Of a DNA stretch of 64,000 nucleotides, positions 1 through 49,924 are shown one piece after another. The position numbers were made by a program, and so were the translations under genes. Position 1 is the stretch's first letter. Every line of letters starts with the position of its first letter. Under the pieces are notes generated by a model, which saw nothing but the letters and a program-made list of their open reading frames with translations, was not told where the DNA came from and made no database searches. Origin of the DNA: Octopus vulgaris (lineage: Eukaryota); assembly GCA_951406725.2 (NCBI GenBank), contig OX597831.1, positions 62,001-126,000 on the forward strand. Reading direction: 5' to 3'.

Positions 1-580
1 AATAGAATCTATAATTAGAATCTATACATAGAATCTATAAATAGAATCTATTAATAGAATCTATAAATAGAATCTATAAATAGAATCTATAAATAATATC
101 TATAAATAGAATCTAAAATTAGAATCTATACATAGAAGCTATAAATAAATAAAAAATAAAAAATAAATAAATAAATAGAATCTAAAAATAGAATCTATAA
201 ATAGAATCTATAAATAGAATCTATAAATAGAATCTATAAATAGAATCTATTAATAGAATCTATAAATAGAATCTATAAATAGAATCTATAAATAGAATCT
301 ATTAATAGAATCTATAAATAGAATCTATAAATAGTATCTATAAATAGAATCTAAAAATAGAATCTATAAATAAAATAAATAAATAAATAAATAAATAGAA
401 TCTATAATTAGAATCTATAAATAGAATCTATAAATAGAATCTATTAATAGAATCTATAAATAGAATCTATAAATAGTATCTATAAATAGAATCTAAAAAT
501 AGAATCTATAAATATAATCTATAAATAAATAAAAAATTTTAAAAAAATAAATAAATAGAATCTATAAATAGAATCTATAA

Positions 581-1340
581 ATAGAACAAATAAACTAAAA
601 ATAGAACAAATAAACTAAAAATAGGACAAATAATCTAAAAATAGGACAAATAATCTAAAATAGAACAGCAACTAAAAATAGGACCAAAAAAATAGAACGT
701 GTAAAGTAAAAATCGAACAAATAAACTAAAAATAGAACAAATAAACTAAAAATAGAACAGCAACTAAAAATAGGACAAACAAACTAAAATTAGAACAGCA
801 ACTAAAAATAGGACAAATAAACTAAAAATAGAACAAGTAAACTTAAAATAGAGAAAATGAACTAAAAATAGGACAAATAAACTAAAAATAGAACAAATAA
901 ACTAAAAATAGAACAGCAACTAAAAATAGGACAAATAAACTAAAAATAGTACAAATAAACTAAAAATAGAACAGAAAAACTAAAAAAAATAACAAATAAA
1001 CTAAAAATAGAACAGCAACTAAAATAGGACAAATAAAGTAAAAATAGAGCAAATAAACTAAAAATAGAACAGCAACTAAAAATAGGACAAATAAACTAAA
1101 AATTGAACAAGTAAACTAAAAATAGATAAAATAAACTAAAGCTAGGACAAATAAACTAAAAATAGAACAAATAAACTAAAAATAGAACAGCAACTAAAAA
1201 TAGTACAAATAAACTAAAAATAGAACAAATAAACTAAAAATAGAACAGCAACTAAAATAGGACAAATAAACTAAAAATAGAACAAATAAACTAAAAATAG
1301 AACAAATGAACTTAAAATAGAACAGCAACTAAAAATAGTT
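581..1340 (+). repeat. 18/20-bp satellite AAATAAACTAAAAATAG(A/G)AC / AGCAACTAAAAATAG(A/G)AC
   Basis: Tandem units read directly; largely conserved core CTAAAAATAG. Confidence 0.95.
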
Positions 1341-1744
1341 ATATTCTATATGCATAAATAGAATCTATACATAGAATCTATACATAGAATCTATACATAG
1401 ACTCTATAAATAGAATCTATAATTAGTAGCAATAAAATAGAAGCTATAAATAGAAGCTATATATAGAAGCTATAAATAAATTAATAAATAAATAGTATCT
1501 ATAAATAGAATCTAAAAATAGAATCTATAAATAGAATCTATAAATAAAATCTATAAATAGAATCTATAAATAGAATCTATAAATAGTATCTATAAATAGA
1601 ATCAATAAATAGAATCTACAAATAGAATCTATAAATAAATAAATAAATATATAAATAAATAAATAAATAAATTGAATCTATAAATAGAATCTACAGATAG
1701 AATCTATAAATAGAATATATAAAAAAATCTATAAATAGAATGTA

Positions 1745-1775
<31 letters not shown>

Positions 1776-2040
1776 AGAGAATCTATAAATAGAATCTATA
1801 AATAGAATCTATAATTAGTAGCTACTAAATAGGAGCAATAAATAGAAGCTATAAATAGAAGCTATAAATAGAAGCTATAAATAGAAGCTATAAATAAATA
1901 AAAAAATAAATAAATAATATCTATAAATAGAATCTATAAATAGAATCTATAAATAGAATCTATTAATAGAATCTATAAATAGAATCTATAAGTAGAATCT
2001 ATAAATAGTATCTATAAATAGAAACTATAAATAGTATCTA

Positions 2041-2071
<31 letters not shown>

Positions 2072-2523
2072 ATAGAATCTATAAATAGAATCTATAAATA
2101 AATAAATAAATAAATAAATAAATAGAATCTATAAATAGAATCTTTAAATAGAATCTATAAATAGAATCTATAAATAGAATCTATAAGTAGAATCTATAAA
2201 TAGAATCTATAATTAGTAGCTATTAAATACAAGCTATAAATAGAAGCTATAATTAGAAGCTATAAATAGAAGCTATAAATAAATTAATAAATAAATAAAT
2301 ATTATCTATAAATAGAATCTAAAATAGAATCTATAAATAGAATCTATAAATAGAATCTATAAATAGAATCTATAAATAGAATCTATAAATAGAATCTATA
2401 AATAGAATCTATAATTAGAATCTATAAATAGTATCTATAAATAGAATCTAAAAATAGAATCTATAAATAGAATCTAAAATAAATAAATAAATAAATAAAT
2501 AAATAGAATCTATAAATAGAATC

Positions 2524-2554
<31 letters not shown>

Positions 2555-3553
2555 AGAATCTATAAATAGAATCTTTAAATAGAATCTATAAATAGAATCT
2601 ATAAATAGAATCTATAAATAGAATCTATATTTAGTAGCTTTTAAATAGAAGTTATAAATAGAAGCTATTATTAGAATCTATAAATAGAAGCTATAAATAA
2701 ATAAATAAATAAATAAATATTATCTATAAATAGAATCTAAAATAGAATCTATAAATAGAATCTATAAATAGAATCTCTAAATAGAATCTATAAATAAAAT
2801 CTATAAATAGAATCTATAAATAGAATCTATAAATATAATCTATAAATATAATCTATAAATAGAATCTATAAATAGAATCTATAAATATAATCTATAAATA
2901 GTATCTATAAATAGAATCTACAAATAGAATCTATAAATAAATAAATAAATAAATAAATATATAAATAAAAGAATCTATAAATAGAATCTATAAATAGAAT
3001 CTATAAGTAGAATCTATAAATAGAATCTATAAATAAAATAAATAAATAAATAAATAAATAGAATCTATAATTAGAATCTATAAATAGAATCTATTAATAG
3101 AATCTATAAATAGAATCTATAAATAGAATCTATAAATAGAATATATAATCTAAAATAGAATCTATAAATAGAATCTATAAATAGAAATAAATAAATAAAT
3201 AAATAAAAAAAATAGAATCTATAAATAGAATCTATAAAATAGAAGCTATAAATAGAAGCTATAATAGAAGCTATAAATAGAATCTATAAATAAATAAATA
3301 AATAAATAAATATTATATAAATAGAATCTATAAATAGAATCTATAAATAGAATCATAAATAGAATCTATAAATAGAATCTATAAATAGAATCTATAAATA
3401 GAATCTAATAAATAGAATCTATAAATAGAATCTAAAATAAATAAATAAATAAATAAATAAATAGAATCTATAGAATCTAGAATCTATAAATAGAATAAAT
3501 AAATAAATAAATAAATAGAATCTATAAATAGAATCTATAAATAGAATCTACTA

Positions 3554-3584
<31 letters not shown>

Positions 3585-6120
3585 ATAGAATCTATAAATA
3601 GAATCTATAAATAAATAAATAAATAAATAAATAAATAGAATCTATAAATAGAATCTTTAAATAGAATCTATAAATAGAATCTATAAATAGAATCTATAAA
3701 TAGAATCTATAAATAGAATCTATAATATAGTAGCTATTAGAATCTATACATAGAATCTATAAATAGAAGCTATAATTAGAATCTATAAATAGAAGCTATA
3801 AATAAATTAATAAATAAATAAATATTATCTATAAATAGAATCTAAAATAGAATCTATAAATAGAATCTATAAATAGAATCTATAAATAGAATCTATAAAT
3901 AGAATCTATAAATAGAATCTATAAATAGAATCTATAATTAGAATCTATAAATAGTATCTATAAATAGAATCTATAAATAGAATCTATAAATAGAATCTAT
4001 AAATAAATAAATAAATAAATAAATAGAATCTATAAATAGAATCTATAAATAAATAAATAAATAAATAAATAAATAGAATCTATAAATAGAATCTTTAAAT
4101 AGAATCTATAAATAGAATCTATAAATAGAATCTATAAATAGAATCTATATTTAGTAGCTTTTAAATAGAAGTTATAAATAGAAGCTATTATTAGAATCTA
4201 TAAATAGAAGCTATAAATAAATAAATAAATAAATAAATATTATCTATAAATAGAATCTAAAATAGAATCTATAAATAGAATCTATAAATAGAATCTATAA
4301 ATAGAATCTATAAATAGAATCTATAAATAAAATCTATAAATAGAATCTATAAATATAATCTATAAATATAATCTATAAATAGAATCTATAAATAGAATCT
4401 ATAAATATAATCTATAAATAGTATCTATAAATAGAATCTACAAATAGAATCTATAAATAAATAAATAAATAAATAAATATATAAATAAAAAGAATCTATA
4501 AATAGAATCTATAAATAGAATCTATAATAGAATCTATAAATAGAATCTATAAATAAAATAAATAAATAAATAAATAAATAGAATCTATAATTAGAATCTA
4601 TAAATAGAATCTATTAATAGAATCTATAAATAGAATCTATAAATAGAATCTATAAATAGAATCTAAAATTAGAATCTATAAATAGAATCTATAAATAAAT
4701 AAAAAATAAAAAAAAAAATAAATAAAATCTAAAAATAGAATCAATAAATAGAATCTATAAAATAGAAGCTATAAATAGAAGCTATAATTAGAAGCTATAA
4801 ATAGAAGCTATAAATAAATAAATAAATAAATAAATATTATCTATAAATAGAATCTATAAATAGAATCTATAAATAGAATCTATAAATAGAATCTATAAAT
4901 AGTATCTATAAATATAATCTATAAATAGAATCTATAAATAGAATCAATAAATAAATAAATAAATAAATAAATAGAATCTATAAATAGAATCTATAAATAA
5001 ATAAATAAATAAATATATAGAATCTATAAATAGAATCTTTAAATAGTATCTATAAATAGAATCTATAAATAGAATCTATAAATAGAATCTATATTTAGTA
5101 GCTTTTAAATAGAAGCTATAAATAGAAGCTATAATTAGAAGCTATAAATAGAAGCTATAAATAAATAAATAAATATTATCTATAAATAGAATCTAAAATA
5201 GAATCTATAAATAGAATCTATAAATAGAATCTATAAGTAGAATCTATAAATAAAATCTATAAATAGAATCTAAAAATAGAATCTATAAATATAATCTATA
5301 AATATAATCTATAAATAGAATCTATAAATAGAATCTATAAATATAATCTATAAATAGTATCTATAAATAGAATCTACAAATAGAATCTATAAATAAATAA
5401 ATAAATAAATAAATATATAAATAAAAAGAATCTATAAATAGAATCTATAAATAGAATCTATAAATAGAATCTATAAATAAAATAAATAAATAAATAAATA
5501 AATAGAATCTATAATTAGAATCTATAAATAGAATCTATAAATAAATAAATAAATAAATATTATCTATAAATAGAATCTAAAATAGAATCTATAAATAGAA
5601 TCTATAAATAGAATCTATAAATAGAATCTATAAATAAAATCTATAAATAGAATCTATAAATAGAATCTATAAATATAATCTATAAATATAATCTATAAAT
5701 AGAATCTATAAATAGAATCTATAAATAGAATCTATATTTAGTAGCTTTTAAATAGAAGCTATAAATAGAAGCTATAATTAGAAGCTATAAATAGAAGCTA
5801 TAAATAAATAAATAAATAAATATTATCTATAAATAGAATCTATAAATATAATCTATAAATATAATCTATAAATAGAATCTATAAATAGAATCTATAAATA
5901 AACTAAATTTATTTATTTTTTTTTATTTTTATTTATTTATAGATTCTATATTTAGTAGCTTTTAAATAGAAGCTATAAATAGAAGCTATAATTAGAAGCT
6001 ATAAATAGAAGCTATAAATAAATAAATAAATAAATATTATCTATAAATAGAATCTAAAATAGAATCTATAAATAGAATCTATAAATAGAATCTATAAATA
6101 GAATCTATAAATAAAATCTA

Positions 6121-6343
6121 TTTTTTTTTTTTTTTTTTTCAGTCATTCGACCGCGGCCATGCTGGAGCACCGCCTTTAGAGTGGTGAAAGAGTACAGCAG
6201 GGATCACCACCATCCCCTGCCGGACCCTCGTGGAGCTTTTAGGTGTTTTCGCTCAATAAACACACACAACGCCCGGTCTGGGAATCGAAACCGCGATCCT
6301 CCGACCGCAAGTCCGCTGCCCTAACCACTGGGCCATTGCGCCT
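6121..6343 (-). mobile_element. tRNA-derived SINE with poly(A) tail inserted in the satellite
   Basis: Minus strand begins AGGCGCAATGGCCCAGTGGTTAGG (A box) ... GGTTTCGATTCC (B box) and ends TGACTG(A)19; TCTA(T) duplicated at 6117-6120 and 6344-6347; empty site in the sister repeat copy near 7205. Confidence 0.93.
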
Positions 6344-7713
6344 TCTATAAATAGAATCTATAAATAGAATCTATAAATATAATCTATAAATATAATCTAT
6401 AAATAGAATCTATAAATAGAATCTATAAATATAATCTATAAATAGTATCTATAAATAGAATCTACAAATAGAATCTATAAATAAATAAATAAATAAATAA
6501 ATATATAAATAAAAAGAATCTATAAATAGAATCTATAAATAGAATCTATAAATAGAATCTATAAATAAAATAAATAAATAAATAAATAAATAGAATCTAT
6601 AATTAGAATCTATAAATAGAATCTATAAATAAATAAATAAATAAATATTATCTATAAATAGAATCTAAAATAGAATCTATAAATAGAATCTATAAATAAA
6701 ATCTATAAATAGAATCTATAAATAAAATATATAAATAGAATCTATAAATAGAATCTATAAATATAATCTATAAATATAATCTATAAATAGAATCTATAAA
6801 TAGAATCTATAAATAGAATCTATATTTAGTAGCTTTTAAATAGAAGCTATAAATAGAAGCTATAATTAGAAGCTATAAATAGAAGCTATAAATAAATAAA
6901 TAAATAAATATTATCTATAAATAGAATCTATAAATATAATCTATAAATATAATCTATAAATAGAATCTATAAATAGAATCTATAAATAAACTAAATTTAT
7001 TTATTTTTTTTTTATTTTTATTTATTTATAGATTCTATATTTAGTAGCTTTTAAATAGAAGCTATAAATAGAAGCTATAATTAGAAGCTATAAATAGAAG
7101 CTATAAATAAATAAATAAATAAATATTATCTATAAATAGAATCTAAAATAGAATCTATAAATAGAATCTATAAATAGAATATATAAATAGAATCTATAAA
7201 TAAAATCTATAAATAGAATCTATAAATAGAATCTATAAATATAATCTATAAATATAATCTATAAATAGAATCTATAAATAGAATCTATAAATATAATCTA
7301 TAAATAGTATCTATAAATAGAATCTACAAATAGAATCTATAAATAAATAAATAAATAAATAAATATATAAATAAAAAGAATCTATAAATAGAATCTATAA
7401 ATAGAATCTATAAATAGAATCTATAAATAAAATAAATAAATAAATAAATAAATAGAATCTATAATTAGAATCTATAAATAGAATCTATAAATAAATAAAT
7501 AAATAAATATTATCTATAAATAGAATCTAAAATAGAATCTATAAATAGAATCTATAAATAGAATCTATAAATAGAATCTATAAATAAAATCTATAAATAG
7601 AATCTATAAATAGAATCTATAAATATAATCTATAAATATAATCTATAAATAGAATCTATAAATAGAATCTATAAATAGAATCTATATTTATAGATTCTAT
7701 TTATAGATTCTAT

Positions 7714-7744
<31 letters not shown>

Positions 7745-8102
7745 TTTTAGATTCTATTTATAGATTCTATTTTTAGATTCTATTTATAGATACTATTTAT
7801 AGATTCTATTTATAGATTCTATTTATAGATTCTATTTATAGATTCTATTTATAGATTCTATTTATAGATTCTATTTATAGATTCTATTTATAGATTCTAT
7901 TTTAGATTCTATTTATACATAATATTTATTTATTTATTTATTTATTTATAGCTTCTATTTATAGCTTCTAATTATAGCTTCTATTTATAGCTTCTATTTA
8001 ATAGCTACTAATTATAGATTCTATTTATAGATTCTACTTATAGATTCTATTTATAGATTCTATTTATAGATTCTATTTAAAGATTCTATTTATAGATTCT
8101 AT

Positions 8103-8137
<35 letters not shown>

Positions 8138-8901
8138 TAGATTCAATTTATAGATTCTATTTATTTATTTATTTATTTATTTATTTATAGATACTATTTA
8201 TAGTTTCTATTTATAGATACTATTTATAGATTCTATTTATAGATTCTATTTATAGATTCTATTAATAGATTCTATTTATAGATTCTATTTATAGATTCTA
8301 TTTATAGATATTATTTATTTATTTTTTTATTTATTTATAGCTTCTATTTATAGCTTCTATTTATAGCTTCTATTTATAGCTTCTATTTATTGCTCCTATT
8401 TAGTAGCTACTAATTATAGATTCTATTTATAGATTCTATTTATAGATTCTATTTATAGATTCTCTTTATTTATTTATTTTTTTATTTATTTATTCATACA
8501 TTCTATTTATAGATTTTTTTTATATATTCTATTTATAGATTCTATCTGTAGATTCTATTTATAGATTCAATTTATTTATTTATTTATTTATATATTTATT
8601 TATTTATTTATAGATTCTATTTGTAGATTCTATTTATTGATTCTATTTATAGATACTATTTATAGATTCTATTTATAGATTCTATTTATAGATTTTATTT
8701 ATAGATTCTATTTATAGATTCTATTTTTAGATTCTATTTATAGATACTATTTATTTATTAATTTATTTATAGCTTCTATATATAGCTTCTATTTATAGCT
8801 TCTATTTTATTGCTACTAATTATAGATTCTATTTATAGAGTCTATGTATAGATTCTATGTATAGATTCTATGTATAGATTCTATTTATGCATATAGAATA
8901 T

Positions 8902-9932
8902 AACTATTTTTAGTTGCTGTTCTATTTTTAGTTTATTTGTCCTATTTTTAGTTGCTGTTCTATTTTAAGTTCATTTGTTCTATTTTTAGTTTATTTGTTC
9001 TATTTTTAGTTTATTTGTCCTATTTTAGTTGCTGTTCTATTTTTAGTTTTTTTGTTCTATTTTTAGTTTATTTGTACTATTTTTAGTTGCTGTTCTATTT
9101 TTAGTTTATTTGTTTTATTTTTAGTTTATTTGTCCTAGCTTTAGTTTATTTTATCTATTTTTAGTTTACTTGTTCAATTTTTAGTTTATTTGTCCTATTT
9201 TTAGTTGCTGTTCTATTTTTAGTTTATTTGCTCTATTTTTAGTTTATTTGTCCTATTTTAGTTGCTGTTCTATTTTTAGTTTATTTGTTCTATTTTTAGT
9301 TTATTTGTACTATTTTTAGTTGCTGTTCTATTTTTAGTTTATTTGTTTTATTTTTAGTTTATTTGTCCTAGCTTTAGTTTATTTTATCTATTTTTAGTTT
9401 ACTTGTTCAATTTTTAGTTTATTTGTCCTATTTTTAGTTGCTGTTCTATTTTTAGTTTATTTGCTCTATTTTTACTTTATTTGTCCTATTTTAGTTGCTG
9501 TTCTATTTTTAGTTTATTTGTTATTTTTTTAGTTTATCTGTTCTATTTTTAGTTTATTTGTCCTATTTTTAGTTTATTTGTCCTATTTTTAGTTGCTGTT
9601 CTATTTTTAGTTTATTTGTTCTATTTTTAGTTTATTTGTCCTATTTTTAGTTCATTTTCTCTATTTTAAGTTTACTTGTTCTATTTTTAGTTTATTTGTC
9701 CTATTTTTAGTTGCTGTTCTAATTTTAGTTTGTTTGTCCTATTTTTAGTTGCTGTTCTATTTTTAGTTTATTTGTTCTATTTTTAGTTTATTTGTTCGAT
9801 TTTTACTTTACACGTTCTATTTTTTTTGGTCCTATTTTTAGTTGCTGTTCTATTTTAGATTATTTGTCCTATTTTTAGATTATTTGTCCTATTTTTAGTT
9901 TATTTGTTCTATTTTTAGTTTATTTGTTCTAT
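8902..9932 (-). repeat. 18/20-bp satellite block (reverse complement of 581-1340 with an extra internal duplication)
   Basis: Shares rare variants such as ACACGTTCTATTTTTTTTGGTCC, the reverse complement of about 681-703. Confidence 0.93.
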
Positions 9933-12157
9933 TTATAGATTCTATTTATAGATTCTATTTATTTATTTATTTTTTATTTATTTATAGATTATATTTATAG
10001 ATTCTATTTTTAGATTCTATTTATAGATACTATTTATAGATTCTATTTATAGATTCTATTAATAGATTCTATTTATAGATTCTATTTATACATTCTAATT
10101 ATAGATTCTATTTATTTATTTATTTATTTTATTTATAGATTCTATTTTTAGATTCTATTTATAGATACTATTTATAGATTCTATTTATAGATTCTATTAA
10201 TAGATTCTATTTTTAGATTCTATTTATAGATTCTATTTATAGATTCTATTAATAGATTCTATTTATAGATTCTATTTATAGATTCTATTTATAGATTCTA
10301 TTTTTAGATTCTATTTATTTATTTTTTTATTTTTTATTTATTTATAGCTTCTATTTATAGATTCTAATTTTAGATTCTATTTATAGATATTATTTATAGA
10401 TTCTATTTATAGATTCTATTTATAGATTCTATTAATAGATTCTATTTATAGATTCTATTTATAGATTCTAATTATAGATTCTATTTATTTATTTATTTAT
10501 TTATTTTATTTATAGATTCTATTTATAGATTCTATTTATAGATTCTATTTATAGATTCTATTTATAGATTCTTTTTATTTATATATTTATTTATTTATTT
10601 ATTTATTTATAGATTCTATTTGTAGATTCTATTTATAGATACTATTTATAGATTATATTTATAGATTCTATTTATAGATTCTATTTATAGATTATATTTA
10701 TAGATTATATTTATAGATTCTATTTATAGATTCTATTTATAGATTCTATTTATAGATTCTATTTATAGATTCTATTTATAGATTCTATTTATAGATTCTA
10801 TTTTAGATTCAATTTATAGATAATATTTATTTATTTATAGCTTCTATTTATAGCTTCTAATTATAGCTTCTATTTATAGCTTCTATTTAAAAGCTACTAA
10901 ATATAGATTCTATTTATAGATTCTATTTATAGATTCTATTTATAGATTCTATTTAAAGATTCTATTTATAGATTCTATTTATTTATTTATTTATTTATTT
11001 ATTTATAGATTCTATTTATGGATTCTATTTATTTATTTATTTATTTATTTATTTTAGATTCTATTTATAGATTCTATTTTTAGATTCTATTTATAGATAC
11101 TATTTATAGATTCTATTTATAGATTCTATTTATAGATTCTATTTATAGATTCTATTTATAGATTCTATTTTAGATTCTATTTATAGATAATATTTATTTA
11201 TTTATTTATTTATTTATAGCTTCTATTTATAGCTTCTAATTATAGCTTCTATTTATAGCTTCTATTTAATAGCTACTAATTATAGATTCTATTTATAGAT
11301 TCTACTTATAGATTCTATTTATAGATTCTATTTATAGATTCTATTTAAAGATTCTATTTATAGATTATATTTATTTATTTATTTATTTTTTTATTTATTT
11401 ATTTATAGATTCTATTTATAGATTCTATTTATTTATTTATTTATTTATTTATTTATAGATTCTATTTATAGTTTCTATTTATAGATACTATTTATAGATT
11501 CTATTTATAGATTCTATTTATAGATTCTATTAATAGATTCTATTTATAGATTCTATTTATAGATTCTATTTATAGATATTATTTATTTATTTTTTATTAT
11601 TTATATTCTATTTATAGCTTCTATTTATAGCTTCTATTTATAGCTCCTAGTTAGTAGCTACTAATTATAGATTCTATTTATAGGTTCTATTTATAGATTC
11701 TATTTATAGATTCTATTTATAGATTCTCTTTATTTATTTATTTATTTATTTATACATTCTATTTATAGATTTTATTTATATATTCTATTTATAGATTCTA
11801 TCTGTAGATTCTATATATAGATTCAATTTATTTATTTATTTATTTATATATTTATTTTTTTATTTATAGATTCTATTTGTAGATTCTATTTATTGATTCT
11901 ATTTATAGATACTATTTATAGATTCTATTTATAGATTCTATTTATAGATTTTATTTATAGATTCTATTTATAGATTCTATTTTTAGATTCTATTTATAGA
12001 TACTATTTATTTATTAATTTATTTATAGCTTCTATATATAGCTTCTATTTATAACTTCTATTTTATTGCTACTAATTATAGATTCTATTTATAGAGTCTA
12101 TGTATAGATTCTATGTATAGATTCTATGTATAGATTCTATTTATGCATATAGAATAT

Positions 12158-12733
12158 AACTATTTTTAGTTGCTGTTCTATTTTTAGTTTATTTGTCCTA
12201 TTTTTAGTTGCTGTTCTATTTTAAGTTCATTTATTCTATTTTTAGTTTATTTGTTCTATTTTTAGTTTATTTCTCCTATTTTAGTTGCTGTTCTATTTTT
12301 AGTTTATTTGCTCTATTTTTACTTTATTTGTCCTATTTTAGTTGCTGTTCTATTTTTAGTTTATTTGTTCTATTTTTAGTTTATCTGTTCTTTTTTTAGT
12401 TTATTTGTCCTATTTTTAGTTTATTTGTTCTATTTTTAGTTTATTTGTTCTATTTTTAGTTTATTTGTCCTATTTTTAGTTGCTGTTCTATTTTTAGGTT
12501 TTTTTACCTTTTTTAGTTTATTTGTTCAATTTTTAGTTTAATTGTTCTATTTTTAGTTTATTTGTCCTATTTTAAGTTGCTGTTCTATTTCTAGTTTATT
12601 TGTCCTATTTTTAGATTATTTTTCCTATTTTTAGTGTATTTGTTCTATTTTTAGTTTATTTGTTCTATTTATTTATTTTATTCATAGATTCTATTTATAG
12701 ATACTATTTATAGATTCTATTTAAAGATACTTT

Positions 12734-12764
<31 letters not shown>

Positions 12765-15478: not shown

Positions 15479-15726
15479 TATAGAATCTATTTATAGATTC
15501 TATTTATTTATATTTTTATATTTTTTTATTTATTTATAGATTATATTTATAGATTCTATTTTTAGATTCTATTTATAGATACTATTTATAGATTCTATTT
15601 ATAGATTCTATTTATAGATTCTATTTATAGATTCTAATTATTGATTCTATTTATTTATTTATTTATTTATTTATTTATAGATTCTATTTATAGATTCTAT
15701 TTATAGATTCTATTTATATATTCTTT

Positions 15727-15757
<31 letters not shown>

Positions 15758-16239
15758 TAGATTCTATTTATAGATTCTATTTATAGATTATATTTATTTA
15801 TTTATTTATTTATTTATAGATTCTATTTATAGATTCTATTTTTAGATATATTATAGATTATATTTATAGATTCTATTTATAGATTCTATTTATAGATTAT
15901 ATTTATAGATTCTATTTATAGATTCTATTTATAGATTTTATTTATAGATTCTATTTATAGATTCTATTTATAGATTCTATTTATAGATTCTATTTTTAGA
16001 TTCTATTTATTTTTTTATTATTTTTTATTTATTTATAGATTCTATTTATAGATTCTATTTTTAGATTCTATTTATTGATACTATTTATAGATTCTATTTA
16101 TAGATTCTATTTAAAGATTCTATTTATAGATTCTATTTATAGATTCTAATTATAGATTCTATTTATTTATTTATTTATTTATTTTATTTATAGATTCTGT
16201 TTATAGATTCTATTTATAGATTCTATTTATAGGTTCTTT

Positions 16240-16274
<35 letters not shown>

Positions 16275-16913
16275 TAGATTCTATTTGTAGATTCTATTTA
16301 TAGATACTATTTATAGATTATATTTATAGATTCTATTTATAGATTCTATTTATAGATTATATTTATAGAATATATTTATAGATTCTATTTATAGATTCTA
16401 TTTATAGATTCTATTTTAGATTCTATTTATAGATAATATTTATTTATTTATTTATTTATTTATAGCTTTATTTATAGCTTCTAATTATAGCTTCTATTTA
16501 TAGCTTCTATTTAAAAGCTACTAAATATAGATTCTATTTATAGATTCTATTTATAGATTCTATTTATAGATTCTATTTATAGATTCTATTTAAAGATTCT
16601 ATTTATAGATTGTATTTATTTATTTATTTATTTATTTATTTATAGATTCTATTTATAGATTCTATTTATTTATTTATTTATTTATTTATTTCAGATTCTA
16701 TTTATAGATTCTATTTTTAGATTCTTTTATAGATACTATTTATAGATTCTATTTATAGATTCTATTTATAGATTCTATTTATAGATTCTATTTATAGATT
16801 CTATTTTAGATTATATTTATAATTATATAGATTATTTTAGATTCTACTTATAGATTCTATTTATAGATTCTATTTATAGATTCTATTTTAAAGATTCTAT
16901 TTATAGATTCTAT

Positions 16914-16944
<31 letters not shown>

Positions 16945-17823
16945 TAGATTCTATTTATATATTCTATTTATTTATTTATTTATTTATTTAATAATAGATT
17001 CTATTTATAGCTTCTATTTATTATAGATTTATTTATAATTATTTTATTCTATTTATAGCTTCTATTTATAGCTATTTATTATAGATTCTATTTATAGATT
17101 CTATTTATAGATTCTATTTATAGATTCTATTTATAGATTCTATTTATTTATTTATTTATTTATAGATTCTATTTATAGATTCTATTTATTTATTTATTTA
17201 TTTATTTATTTATAGATTCTATTTATAGATTCTATTTATAGATACTATTTATAGATTCTATTTATAGATTCTATTTATAGATTCTATTTATAGATTCTAT
17301 TTATAGATTCTATTTATAGATTCTATTTATAGATATTATTTATTTATTTTTTTATTTATTATAGCTTCTATTTATAGATTCTATTTATAGTTCTATTTAT
17401 AGCTTCTATTTATAGATCCTATTTATAGATTACTATTTATAGATTCTATTTATAGATTCTATTTATAGATTCTATTCATAGATATATTTATATATTTATT
17501 TATTTATTTATAGATTCTATTTATATGATTCTATTTATAGATTCTAATTATAGATTCTATTTATAGCTTCTATTTATAGCTCTATTTTATTGCTACTAAT
17601 TATAGATTCTATTTATATTATTTATTTATTTATAGATTCTATTTATAGATTCTATTTATAGATTCTATTTATAGATTTATTTATAGATTCTATTTATAGA
17701 TACTATTTATAGATTCTACTTATAGATTCTATTTATAGATTCTATTTATAGATACTATTTATAGATTTGAACCAGTTTGAACCGGTTTCAACCAGTTTGA
17801 ACCGTTTGAACTGGTTTGACCCG

Positions 17824-48916: not shown

Positions 48917-49515
48917 GCTGCTGCTGCTGCTGTTGTTGTAGTTGTTGTTGTTGTTGTTCAGGTCACTGCTTGGAATCGGACTCGGAATCTTGGGGTTAGT
49001 AGCCCGCGCTCTTAACCACTAATTGCCCGTGGGCAATTATGGAGTGAATTTTGGGGCTTATAAATCTAATATTCTCCTATCCTTCCTTAAAACCCGTTCC
49101 CATATGCTGCTCATATCTGCATTCGGTCTGCTTAGGAGTTTGTTGTGTCCTAGCATATGTGCTGCTTCTTTTAGTTTTCGTATTTTCCAGTGGTGTTTTC
49201 TGTCTATTATTTTAACTTTATCCCTCAAGAATTGGTGGTCTCCATTTTTCCATACATGATCAGCTATATCCGATTTATCAATATCTCCTCGTGTCACAGC
49301 TTTGCGATGTTCGTCTACCCTTATTTTGAGGGGGCGGCATGTTTCGCCTTTGTATAACCTATCACAGCTGCATGGCATGGAGTACACGCAGTCTTTGGTC
49401 ATATTCTCTTCTATTGGTGGTTTTACTCGAAGGAGATATTTGCGAAGTGTTGCATTACTCTTGAATACTGTCCTGTGGTCATATGAGCCGCATATCCTCC
49501 GTATCTTTTCGGAAA
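48800..49515 (-). pseudogene. Penelope-like element remnant: GIY-YIG endonuclease (49058-49515) plus downstream region with a tRNA-like segment
   Basis: In-frame SEKIRRICGSYDHRTVFKSNATLRKYLLRVKPPIEENMTKDCVYSMPCSCDRLYKGETCRPLKIRVDEH...SDIADHVW...RKLKEA: VY-x-x-PC-x-C...Y-x-GET-x-R...EH...H...E, typical of the Penelope/Poseidon endonuclease. Confidence 0.88.
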
Positions 49516-49924
49516 AAGACAGTATAAGCCCGTTTAGTCTTGGCGAAGGTAGTAGTAAGAAAGATAGATTCCCTATCGTCTCGTGTCAGCGACGAGAGAA
49601 TCGAGGAGGAGGAGTGAGAGAGAGGAAACAGTGAAGGGGAGAGGAGTTACTAAACCACCTTGTTTTTACCAGCTTGATAGATAAGGAAATGAGTGAATAT
49701 TTCGGCCATGAAACCTGAGTTGCTGTATTTTATAAGGCACTTTTTTTTTTCTTTTTGTAACAATATCTTTATTCTCTTAACTAATCGAGTGTTATACTGT
49801 CTGTTGAACTTCATACCGCATACATATCTCTGTGTTTATGTATGTGTGTGTATGTATGTGTGTGTATGTGTGTGTGCGTGCGTCTCTACGTATGTGTGTG
49901 TCTGTGCGTGTATGTGTGTGTTTT

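Follow-up and report, generated by a model that had tools for sequence, protein, structure and literature searches.

Why does one stretch of octopus DNA repeat the binding sequence of a single transcription factor several hundred times, and how did it come to do so? The stretch analyzed here, hereafter the window, comprises 64,000 nucleotides of the Octopus vulgaris genome (G000:C18:62001-126000; genome size 2.8 Gb). Its positions 1-17765 hold 694 exact copies of the box CTAWWWWTAG, the consensus of MEF2, whose commonest site is CTAAAAATAG (PMC3250504). This array is one block of a mosaic of about 100 kb, which is in turn one of nine MEF2 loci found. From the sequence, we give about an even chance to the following reading as a whole: the array is a tandem satellite belonging to a dispersed, multi-factor mosaic family, which probably spreads by preferential copying of those units that are predicted to bind transcription factors.

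The box is carried by two kinds of monomer, as an initial annotation of the window had stated: a 13-mer, whose commonest unit is CTATAAATAGAAT, and a 20-mer, CTAAAAATAG(A/G)ACAAATAAA, intermixed with an 18-mer, CTAAAAATAGAACAGCAA (that is, CTAAAAATAG plus AACAGCAA). The satellite also contains (TAAA)n tracts and inversions; the boxes lie mostly on the plus strand until about 7680 and mostly on the minus strand beyond, with two short plus blocks near 13200 and 14200. The annotation's estimate of the order of 10^3 sites was slightly high. The relaxed form YTAWWWWTAR is found 801 times in the same interval. The entire window has 980 exact boxes, with none within 40001-64000, and C18:1-126000 has 3015. 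The MEF2 array begins upstream of the window, at G000:C18:9214, where a 22-mer array with TGCGCATGCGC precedes it; 13-mer blocks reappear as far as window position 38446, and the left end of the mosaic is cut by the contig start.

The variants named in the annotation are all present, namely those of the W4 center (CTATAATTAG, CTATTAATAG, CTAAAAATAG and CTAAAATTAG), the GAAGCT flank variant and the site-breaking forms of the 13-mer; common variants of this unit also include the GTAT flank, the GCTA flank and CTATAAATAT. Its central proposal, that two different monomers had converged on one site, is not borne out. Aligned with the beginning of the 20-mer, the 13-mer has the same base at 11 of 13 positions, and thus common descent is the simpler account. 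Hybrid units occur at 13-mer/20-mer junctions (window 575), and only three bases of the 13-mer lie outside the 10-bp box. A forkhead reading of the 20-mer linker is not supported either: the word RYAAAYA is present in this unit, but the ACAAATA positions vary by 1-9%, versus 3-5% in the MEF2 core, i.e., they are unprotected, and the (TAAA)n tracts are an ordinary microsatellite. What is of interest in this locus is not convergence but membership in a multi-factor mosaic, which the annotation missed.

The genome encodes two MEF2-type genes; two MEF2-type exons and one SRF-type exon were found. One of the encoded proteins (L172) is identical to human MEF2A at 65 of 68 residues over residues 17-84, the first 16 residues being in another exon. 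Both genes (L172 and L173) lie on C4, and the L173 copy diverges toward the end of the MEF2 domain. Flatworm MEF2 is reported to bind CTAAAAATAG and CTATATATAG (PMC3250504).

The neighbors to which MEF2 blocks are joined in the window are a 10-mer (TTTGAACCGG), an octamer array of 21-mers, a TGATGAAA 13-mer and a 22-mer, and searches of G000 place each of these monomer families elsewhere in the genome too. The nine MEF2 loci hold 1633 of the 1797 exact triple-13-mer words, and a non-MEF2 family is also present in eight of them; three weak BLAST hits (L068-L070) contain no MEF2 array. The mosaics also contain a 9-mer, GACATTCC(A/T), a 58-mer in which GGAATG occurs as an inverted pair, and a CCAAATAGC 13-mer. 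Overall, the monomers measure 9-58 bp, and the largest array seen is about 105 kb, some arrays ending at gaps.

Several of these units read as predicted sites of particular factors. The 9-mer array reads CATTCC-NNN-CATTCC, a predicted TEAD site with the cooperative 9-bp spacing, which corresponds to the TEAD double motif described in PMC4546604. The 10-mer array spells the Tcfcp2l1 consensus, CCGGTTCAAACCGG; the 21-mer contains the octamer ATGCAAAT, given in the same published table (PMC5110948). In the 22-mer of the window, 9 of 11 bases agree with the TCF HMG site, and an RCCG helper lies at a distance of 4-5 bp (PMC4154663). A second 22-mer, of NRF1 type, carries TGCGCATGCGC. We take this word to be the NRF1 consensus, and assume the Grainyhead consensus words likewise; the TGATGAAA unit presumably resembles an ATF4-C/EBP site, but no constraint was seen in it and it was not assigned. 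Shuffled monomers contain the matched words at p = 2.5e-5 to 0.011 (NRF1, 2.5e-5; TCF, 2.7e-4; Tcfcp2l1, 4e-4; 13-mer, 0.005), or 0.09 for the 58-mer, in a test that covers only motifs picked after the monomers had been seen. Given this post hoc choice and the hundreds of existing motifs, none of the matches is sufficient evidence when taken singly.

The family is not an artefact of one assembly, since runs from several studies and under several organism labels each contain 25-41% of the words sampled from a sister mosaic (L059:3000-10000). These runs, X1-X8, represent five studies (four without the best match, a possible source) and three labels, small-share rows, including organism D, being excluded; no RNA run is among the matches listed. 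Literature searches found no published description of the arrays. The main text of a 2026 repeat annotation of Octopus vulgaris is silent on them, and its supplement or repeat library could list the monomers (PMC13282606).

The distribution of variants between motif cores and the rest of each unit bears on how the arrays spread. The core is less variable than the remainder in 17/17 loci for NRF1, 32/32 for TCF, 9/9 for TEAD and 8/9 for the MEF2 13-mer. Common minor alleles, defined as those that reached 5% in a locus, number 0.25 per position per locus in the core and 0.89 in the rest for NRF1, 0.10 and 0.45 for TCF, 0.30 and 1.11 for TEAD, 0.09 and 0.33 for the 13-mer, and 0.04 and 0.25 for the 20-mer; that is, they are about 3.5-6 times commoner outside the core in these families. 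Likewise, the outer C and G of AACCGGTT in the 10-mer are less variable than the inner pair in five of five loci. Rare alleles, below 2%, are distributed roughly evenly or lean toward the core, with core and rest values of 1.12 and 0.88% for NRF1, 0.72 and 0.78% for TCF, and 1.47 and 0.81% for the 13-mer; for TEAD the values are 0.76 and 1.18%. Some alleles of this class may be assembly errors, and its frequency is reduced mechanically at positions with a common allele. This pattern fits selection acting at the step when a unit is copied, followed by neutral decay. CpG transitions in the NRF1 core amount to 1.5-2.3% at four of five positions and 5.5% at the last, versus 0.8-2.8% at non-CpG positions; the lack of a clear excess suggests that the arrays are unmethylated in the germ line.

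For MEF2 itself, the initial annotation had predicted that the CTA and TAG positions would be depleted of change. We scored only 13-mers with near-consensus, in-register units on both sides, excluding those beside indels or (TAAA)n. Among 442 such units in the window, change per position was C 1.4, T 1.1, A 2.5, T 5.9, A 3.6, A 3.6, A 8.4, T 0.7, A 0.5, G 11.3, A 8.1, A 1.1 and T 5.9%. The spectrum is thus non-uniform and five core bases are quiet, but the G of TAG is not among them. Over the nine loci, the strict box is intact in 5161 of 6426 units. In the 20-mer the core is less variable than the flank in 4/4 loci, a signal that comes mostly from one A/G dimorphism.

Several observations weigh against selective copying, in addition to the makeup of the rare class. 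The G of TAG is the window's most variable 13-mer base, at about ten times the change of the middle linker A. Alleles that keep the site exceed those that break it over the nine loci with p = 0.03-0.10 if literature 'weak' sites are regarded as site-keeping, and p = 0.15-0.29 if the strict consensus is required. In the 18-mer the skew is reversed (0/3 loci; common alleles 0.28 in the core and 0.12 in the rest), and the octamer 21-mer (0.15 and 0.18) and the TGATGAAA 13-mer (0.46 and 0.46) lack it. Loci share ancestry, so that they are less independent than the sign counts imply; the cores were delimited, on the basis of known consensus words, once the pooled table had been seen. A lone motif match, such as that of the 13-mer, is weak given hundreds of motifs, and three mosaic monomers, the TGATGAAA and CCAAATAGC 13-mers and a 37-bp A-tract unit, have no clear factor. 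Given the p values, the dimorphism and the 18-mer, the MEF2-specific evidence is weak, and the substitution test supports MEF2 only to that degree.

The most probable alternative, which we nevertheless regard as unlikely, is a neutral satellite, in which an AT-rich quasi-palindromic unit arose by slippage and matches MEF2 by chance, the variants reflecting a few amplified subfamilies and hairpin-related homogenization. Since the box takes up ten of the 13 bases of the 13-mer, most tests of the linker are of low power; at most A/T positions of this unit, A/T exchanges prevail; and the 18-mer, octamer and TGATGAAA units are without constraint. Moreover, some motif will match any satellite, 42 of 828 motifs being enriched tenfold in human satellite 3 (HSat3) as reported in PMC11526998, which also counts against selective copying. 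Neutrality leaves unexplained, though, the presence of six factor families in one mosaic system, matches of 11-14 bp and the TEAD spacing. It also leaves unexplained the core conservation of the TCF and TEAD units, whose cores are non-palindromic, so that hairpins fail to account for it.

Slightly less probable still is that the host maintains the arrays, either as platforms collecting or titrating MEF2 and other factors or as enhancers of very large size, in the way reported for HSat3, which binds TEAD and recruits YAP (PMC11526998). The numbers would allow this: the nine loci, about 0.4 Mb in summed spans, hold 7612 of the 22200 genomic CTAWAAATAGA words, or 34%, so titration, whether as sink or platform, is numerically possible; the reversed control word is present 10,623 times. 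Several arrays run into assembly gaps, so their real extent may be greater. Against maintenance, rare alleles strike cores about as often as linkers, and thus single copies do not look protected. The arrays also sit at unrelated sites, within short interspersed nuclear elements (SINEs), beside pieces of long interspersed nuclear elements and inside other satellites. No host gene was recognized by eye in the open reading frames (ORFs) of window 40000-64000, and an Rfam search of the window gave no match.

The manner of dispersal was assessed from array flanks and internal junctions. Flanks are mostly unrelated between loci, and no shared transposon end or target-site duplication was found in 13 flank sets, at 18 loci with both ends, a further 8 loci being truncated, or at 20 TCF loci. 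TCF arrays break into a SINE (L134) or other repeats and show no more than short microhomology there. Among 77 TCF/TEAD junctions at 7 loci, 74 are distinct, indicating that unrelated arrays met many times. By contrast, one 10-mer/13-mer junction is common to four loci. Octamer/13-mer/10-mer blocks recur as copies that share 95-98% identity across 1.4-5.1 kb, and a 2.5-kb match at 98% identity links blocks upstream of the window with the mosaic at C18:20.24 Mb.

This last mosaic opens with a junction between a Helitron and an NRF1 array and then runs into MEF2 blocks. In 11 of 17 NRF1 loci, a Helitron-type element of 398 bp lies within about 330 bp of the array; over 37 nt, its terminus shows an 89% match to the hairpin-CTAG 3' end of a Rep/helicase Helitron. 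It would be rather improbable, all the same, that the arrays began as enhancer repeats in rolling-circle transposons, boosting them and being carried by them, despite the precedent of Caenorhabditis Helitrons that carry heat shock elements (PMC6927752). The element occurs within 350 bp of only 2 of 27 TCF loci, two more loci adjoining, as judged by eye, a similar Helitron-like end, and at 1 of 9 MEF2 loci, many MEF2 ends lying in gaps or not being reached, and four young autonomous Helitron loci (C2, C4:115 Mb, C11 and C5) have no such array. Helitron carriage thus probably accounts for part of the spread; the remainder would have proceeded by recombination or circle reinsertion. Contamination by a laboratory reporter is ruled out by the divergence of the units, the SINE insertion, the dispersal and the presence of the family in runs of several studies.

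Concerning the Helitrons themselves, a young autonomous family is 6.1 kb long, with copies more than 99% identical and ORFs of 1371-1744 residues (L123-L128, L115), and at least eight Helitron Rep domains are clustered on C29 (G000:C29:27.64-27.83 Mb). A Helitron-like 5' end (ATCTATATATA / ATCTTTATATA; L097:3130-3148) is similar both to the first bases of the 13-mer and to a portion of the TCF unit, and is a possible origin of the monomers.

Selective copying, our preferred reading, could operate as follows. Factors would occupy the arrays in germ-line cells or in the early embryo; binding would keep them open and bring different arrays together, favoring breakage, template switching or rolling-circle copying, and reinsertion. 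Selection would act when a unit is copied, the copies decaying neutrally afterwards, and no benefit to the host would be required. A bolder form of this idea, which we hold tentatively and somewhat below even, is a natural counterpart, in the germ line, of systematic evolution of ligands by exponential enrichment (SELEX). Here, binding as the selective agent would have driven unrelated monomers to optimal sites and cooperative spacings (MEF2, NRF1, TCF, TEAD, POU, Grainyhead/CP2), with arrays recombining into mosaics in co-activator hubs and now holding a third of the genome's best MEF2 sites.

Table 1. Repeat blocks of the mosaic in the window (window coordinates).
Feature	Position	Strand
13-mer MEF2-box array (CTATAAATAGAAT) with (TAAA)n tracts; extends upstream to G000:C18:9214	1-574	+
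Mixed 20-mer/18-mer MEF2-box array (CTAAAAATAG)	575-1338	+
13-mer MEF2-box array	1339-7680	+
SINE-like insert, poly(T) end	6122-6343	-
13-mer MEF2-box array, inverted	7681-8903	-
20/18-mer array; inverted copy of 573-1336 at 98% identity	8904-9938	-
13-mer alternating with 20/18-mer blocks (20/18-mer at about 12160-12654 and 13132-15483), two short + blocks	9939-17765	-
10-mer TTTGAACCGG block (Grainyhead/TFCP2L1-type site)	17766-17823	
21-mer octamer (ATGCAAAT) array interleaved with 13-mer and 10-mer blocks; higher-order repeats of about 1-4 kb	17824-36348	-
13-mer MEF2-box array	36349-38444	-
10-mer blocks surrounding a 13-mer TGATGAAAATGTT block at 38623-38756	38445-39034	
22/23-mer array, TCF HMG site (AGATCAAAG) and RCCG helper; right end of the mosaic	39037-40156	+

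The insert within the third block, which we take to be a SINE, is bracketed by an 866-bp direct duplication (5256-6121 = 6344-7210, 99.4%), far longer than the usual target-site duplication. In appearance, the SINE-like inserts and the microsatellites are of octopus type. Beyond the mosaic, a 175-residue frame at 49058-49585 (minus strand) resembles the end of a retroelement ORF. Elsewhere in the genome, on C18 and C30 (L031:755-7009; L091-L094), blocks of the NRF1-type 22-mer alternate with tandem units of 152 bp that are SINE-derived in appearance. An (AT)n tract whose ATAATTTGTAT units differ by one base from the octamer unit is found a few kb away from an array made purely of the octamer 21-mer (L103, L105 and L107, beyond an NRF1 array; G000:C4:29.936-29.960 Mb), and may be a precursor or a decay product of the octamer array. 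Two TCF arrays adjoin interstitial telomere-like repeats (L046:8001-10000; L142, left of 3683). Other satellites joined to arrays are a unit of about 26 bp in which the words TTGGCA and AAATCAATG occur, the CCAAATAGC 13-mer and the 37-bp A-tract unit (L148 flanks; L109:5953-10000; L102, L139, L143, L040).

It has long been asked why certain short sequences turn into satellites, and monomers that match different conserved regulators allow a direct test of whether protein binding drives the birth and spread of satellites. If the arrays are bound, the nine loci, where a third of the copies of one high-affinity MEF2 word reside, could serve to titrate or to concentrate a key regulator of muscle and neurons, and polymorphic arrays could serve as mobile super-enhancers. 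Among known systems, the mouse major satellite is said to act as a sink or dock for factors, through sequestration of C/EBP-alpha or binding of Pax3/Pax9; there, reportedly, imperfect sites lie within a 234-bp unit, rather than the units being made of the site. Synthetic multimer reporters of the TOPFLASH type likewise are high-density clusters of near-perfect sites (PMC4154663), whereas the octopus arrays are natural, diverged, interrupted by SINEs, located on many chromosomes and found in runs of several studies. The heat shock elements of Caenorhabditis resemble the NRF1-type arrays in being repeated factor sites inside Helitrons, but concern one factor, for which binding and gene effects are reported (PMC6927752); here at least six factor families are represented, and most arrays lack Helitron ends. 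HSat3, as described in PMC11526998, is also a satellite dense in factor motifs, TEAD included, and holds a large share of sites, 24-58% for TEAD as compared with 34% of one MEF2 word here. It differs in being a single CATTC-pentamer family of megabase size near ribosomal DNA, with demonstrated binding, whereas the octopus arrays, known from sequence alone, are built of several unrelated monomers of 9-58 bp, one factor each, in dispersed mosaics of 1-100 kb. Thus, HSat3 as a TEAD platform is the closest known case, followed by the Helitron-borne heat shock elements; what sets the octopus system apart from both is a set of many unrelated monomers, each near the predicted best site of one factor, assembled into dispersed mosaics.

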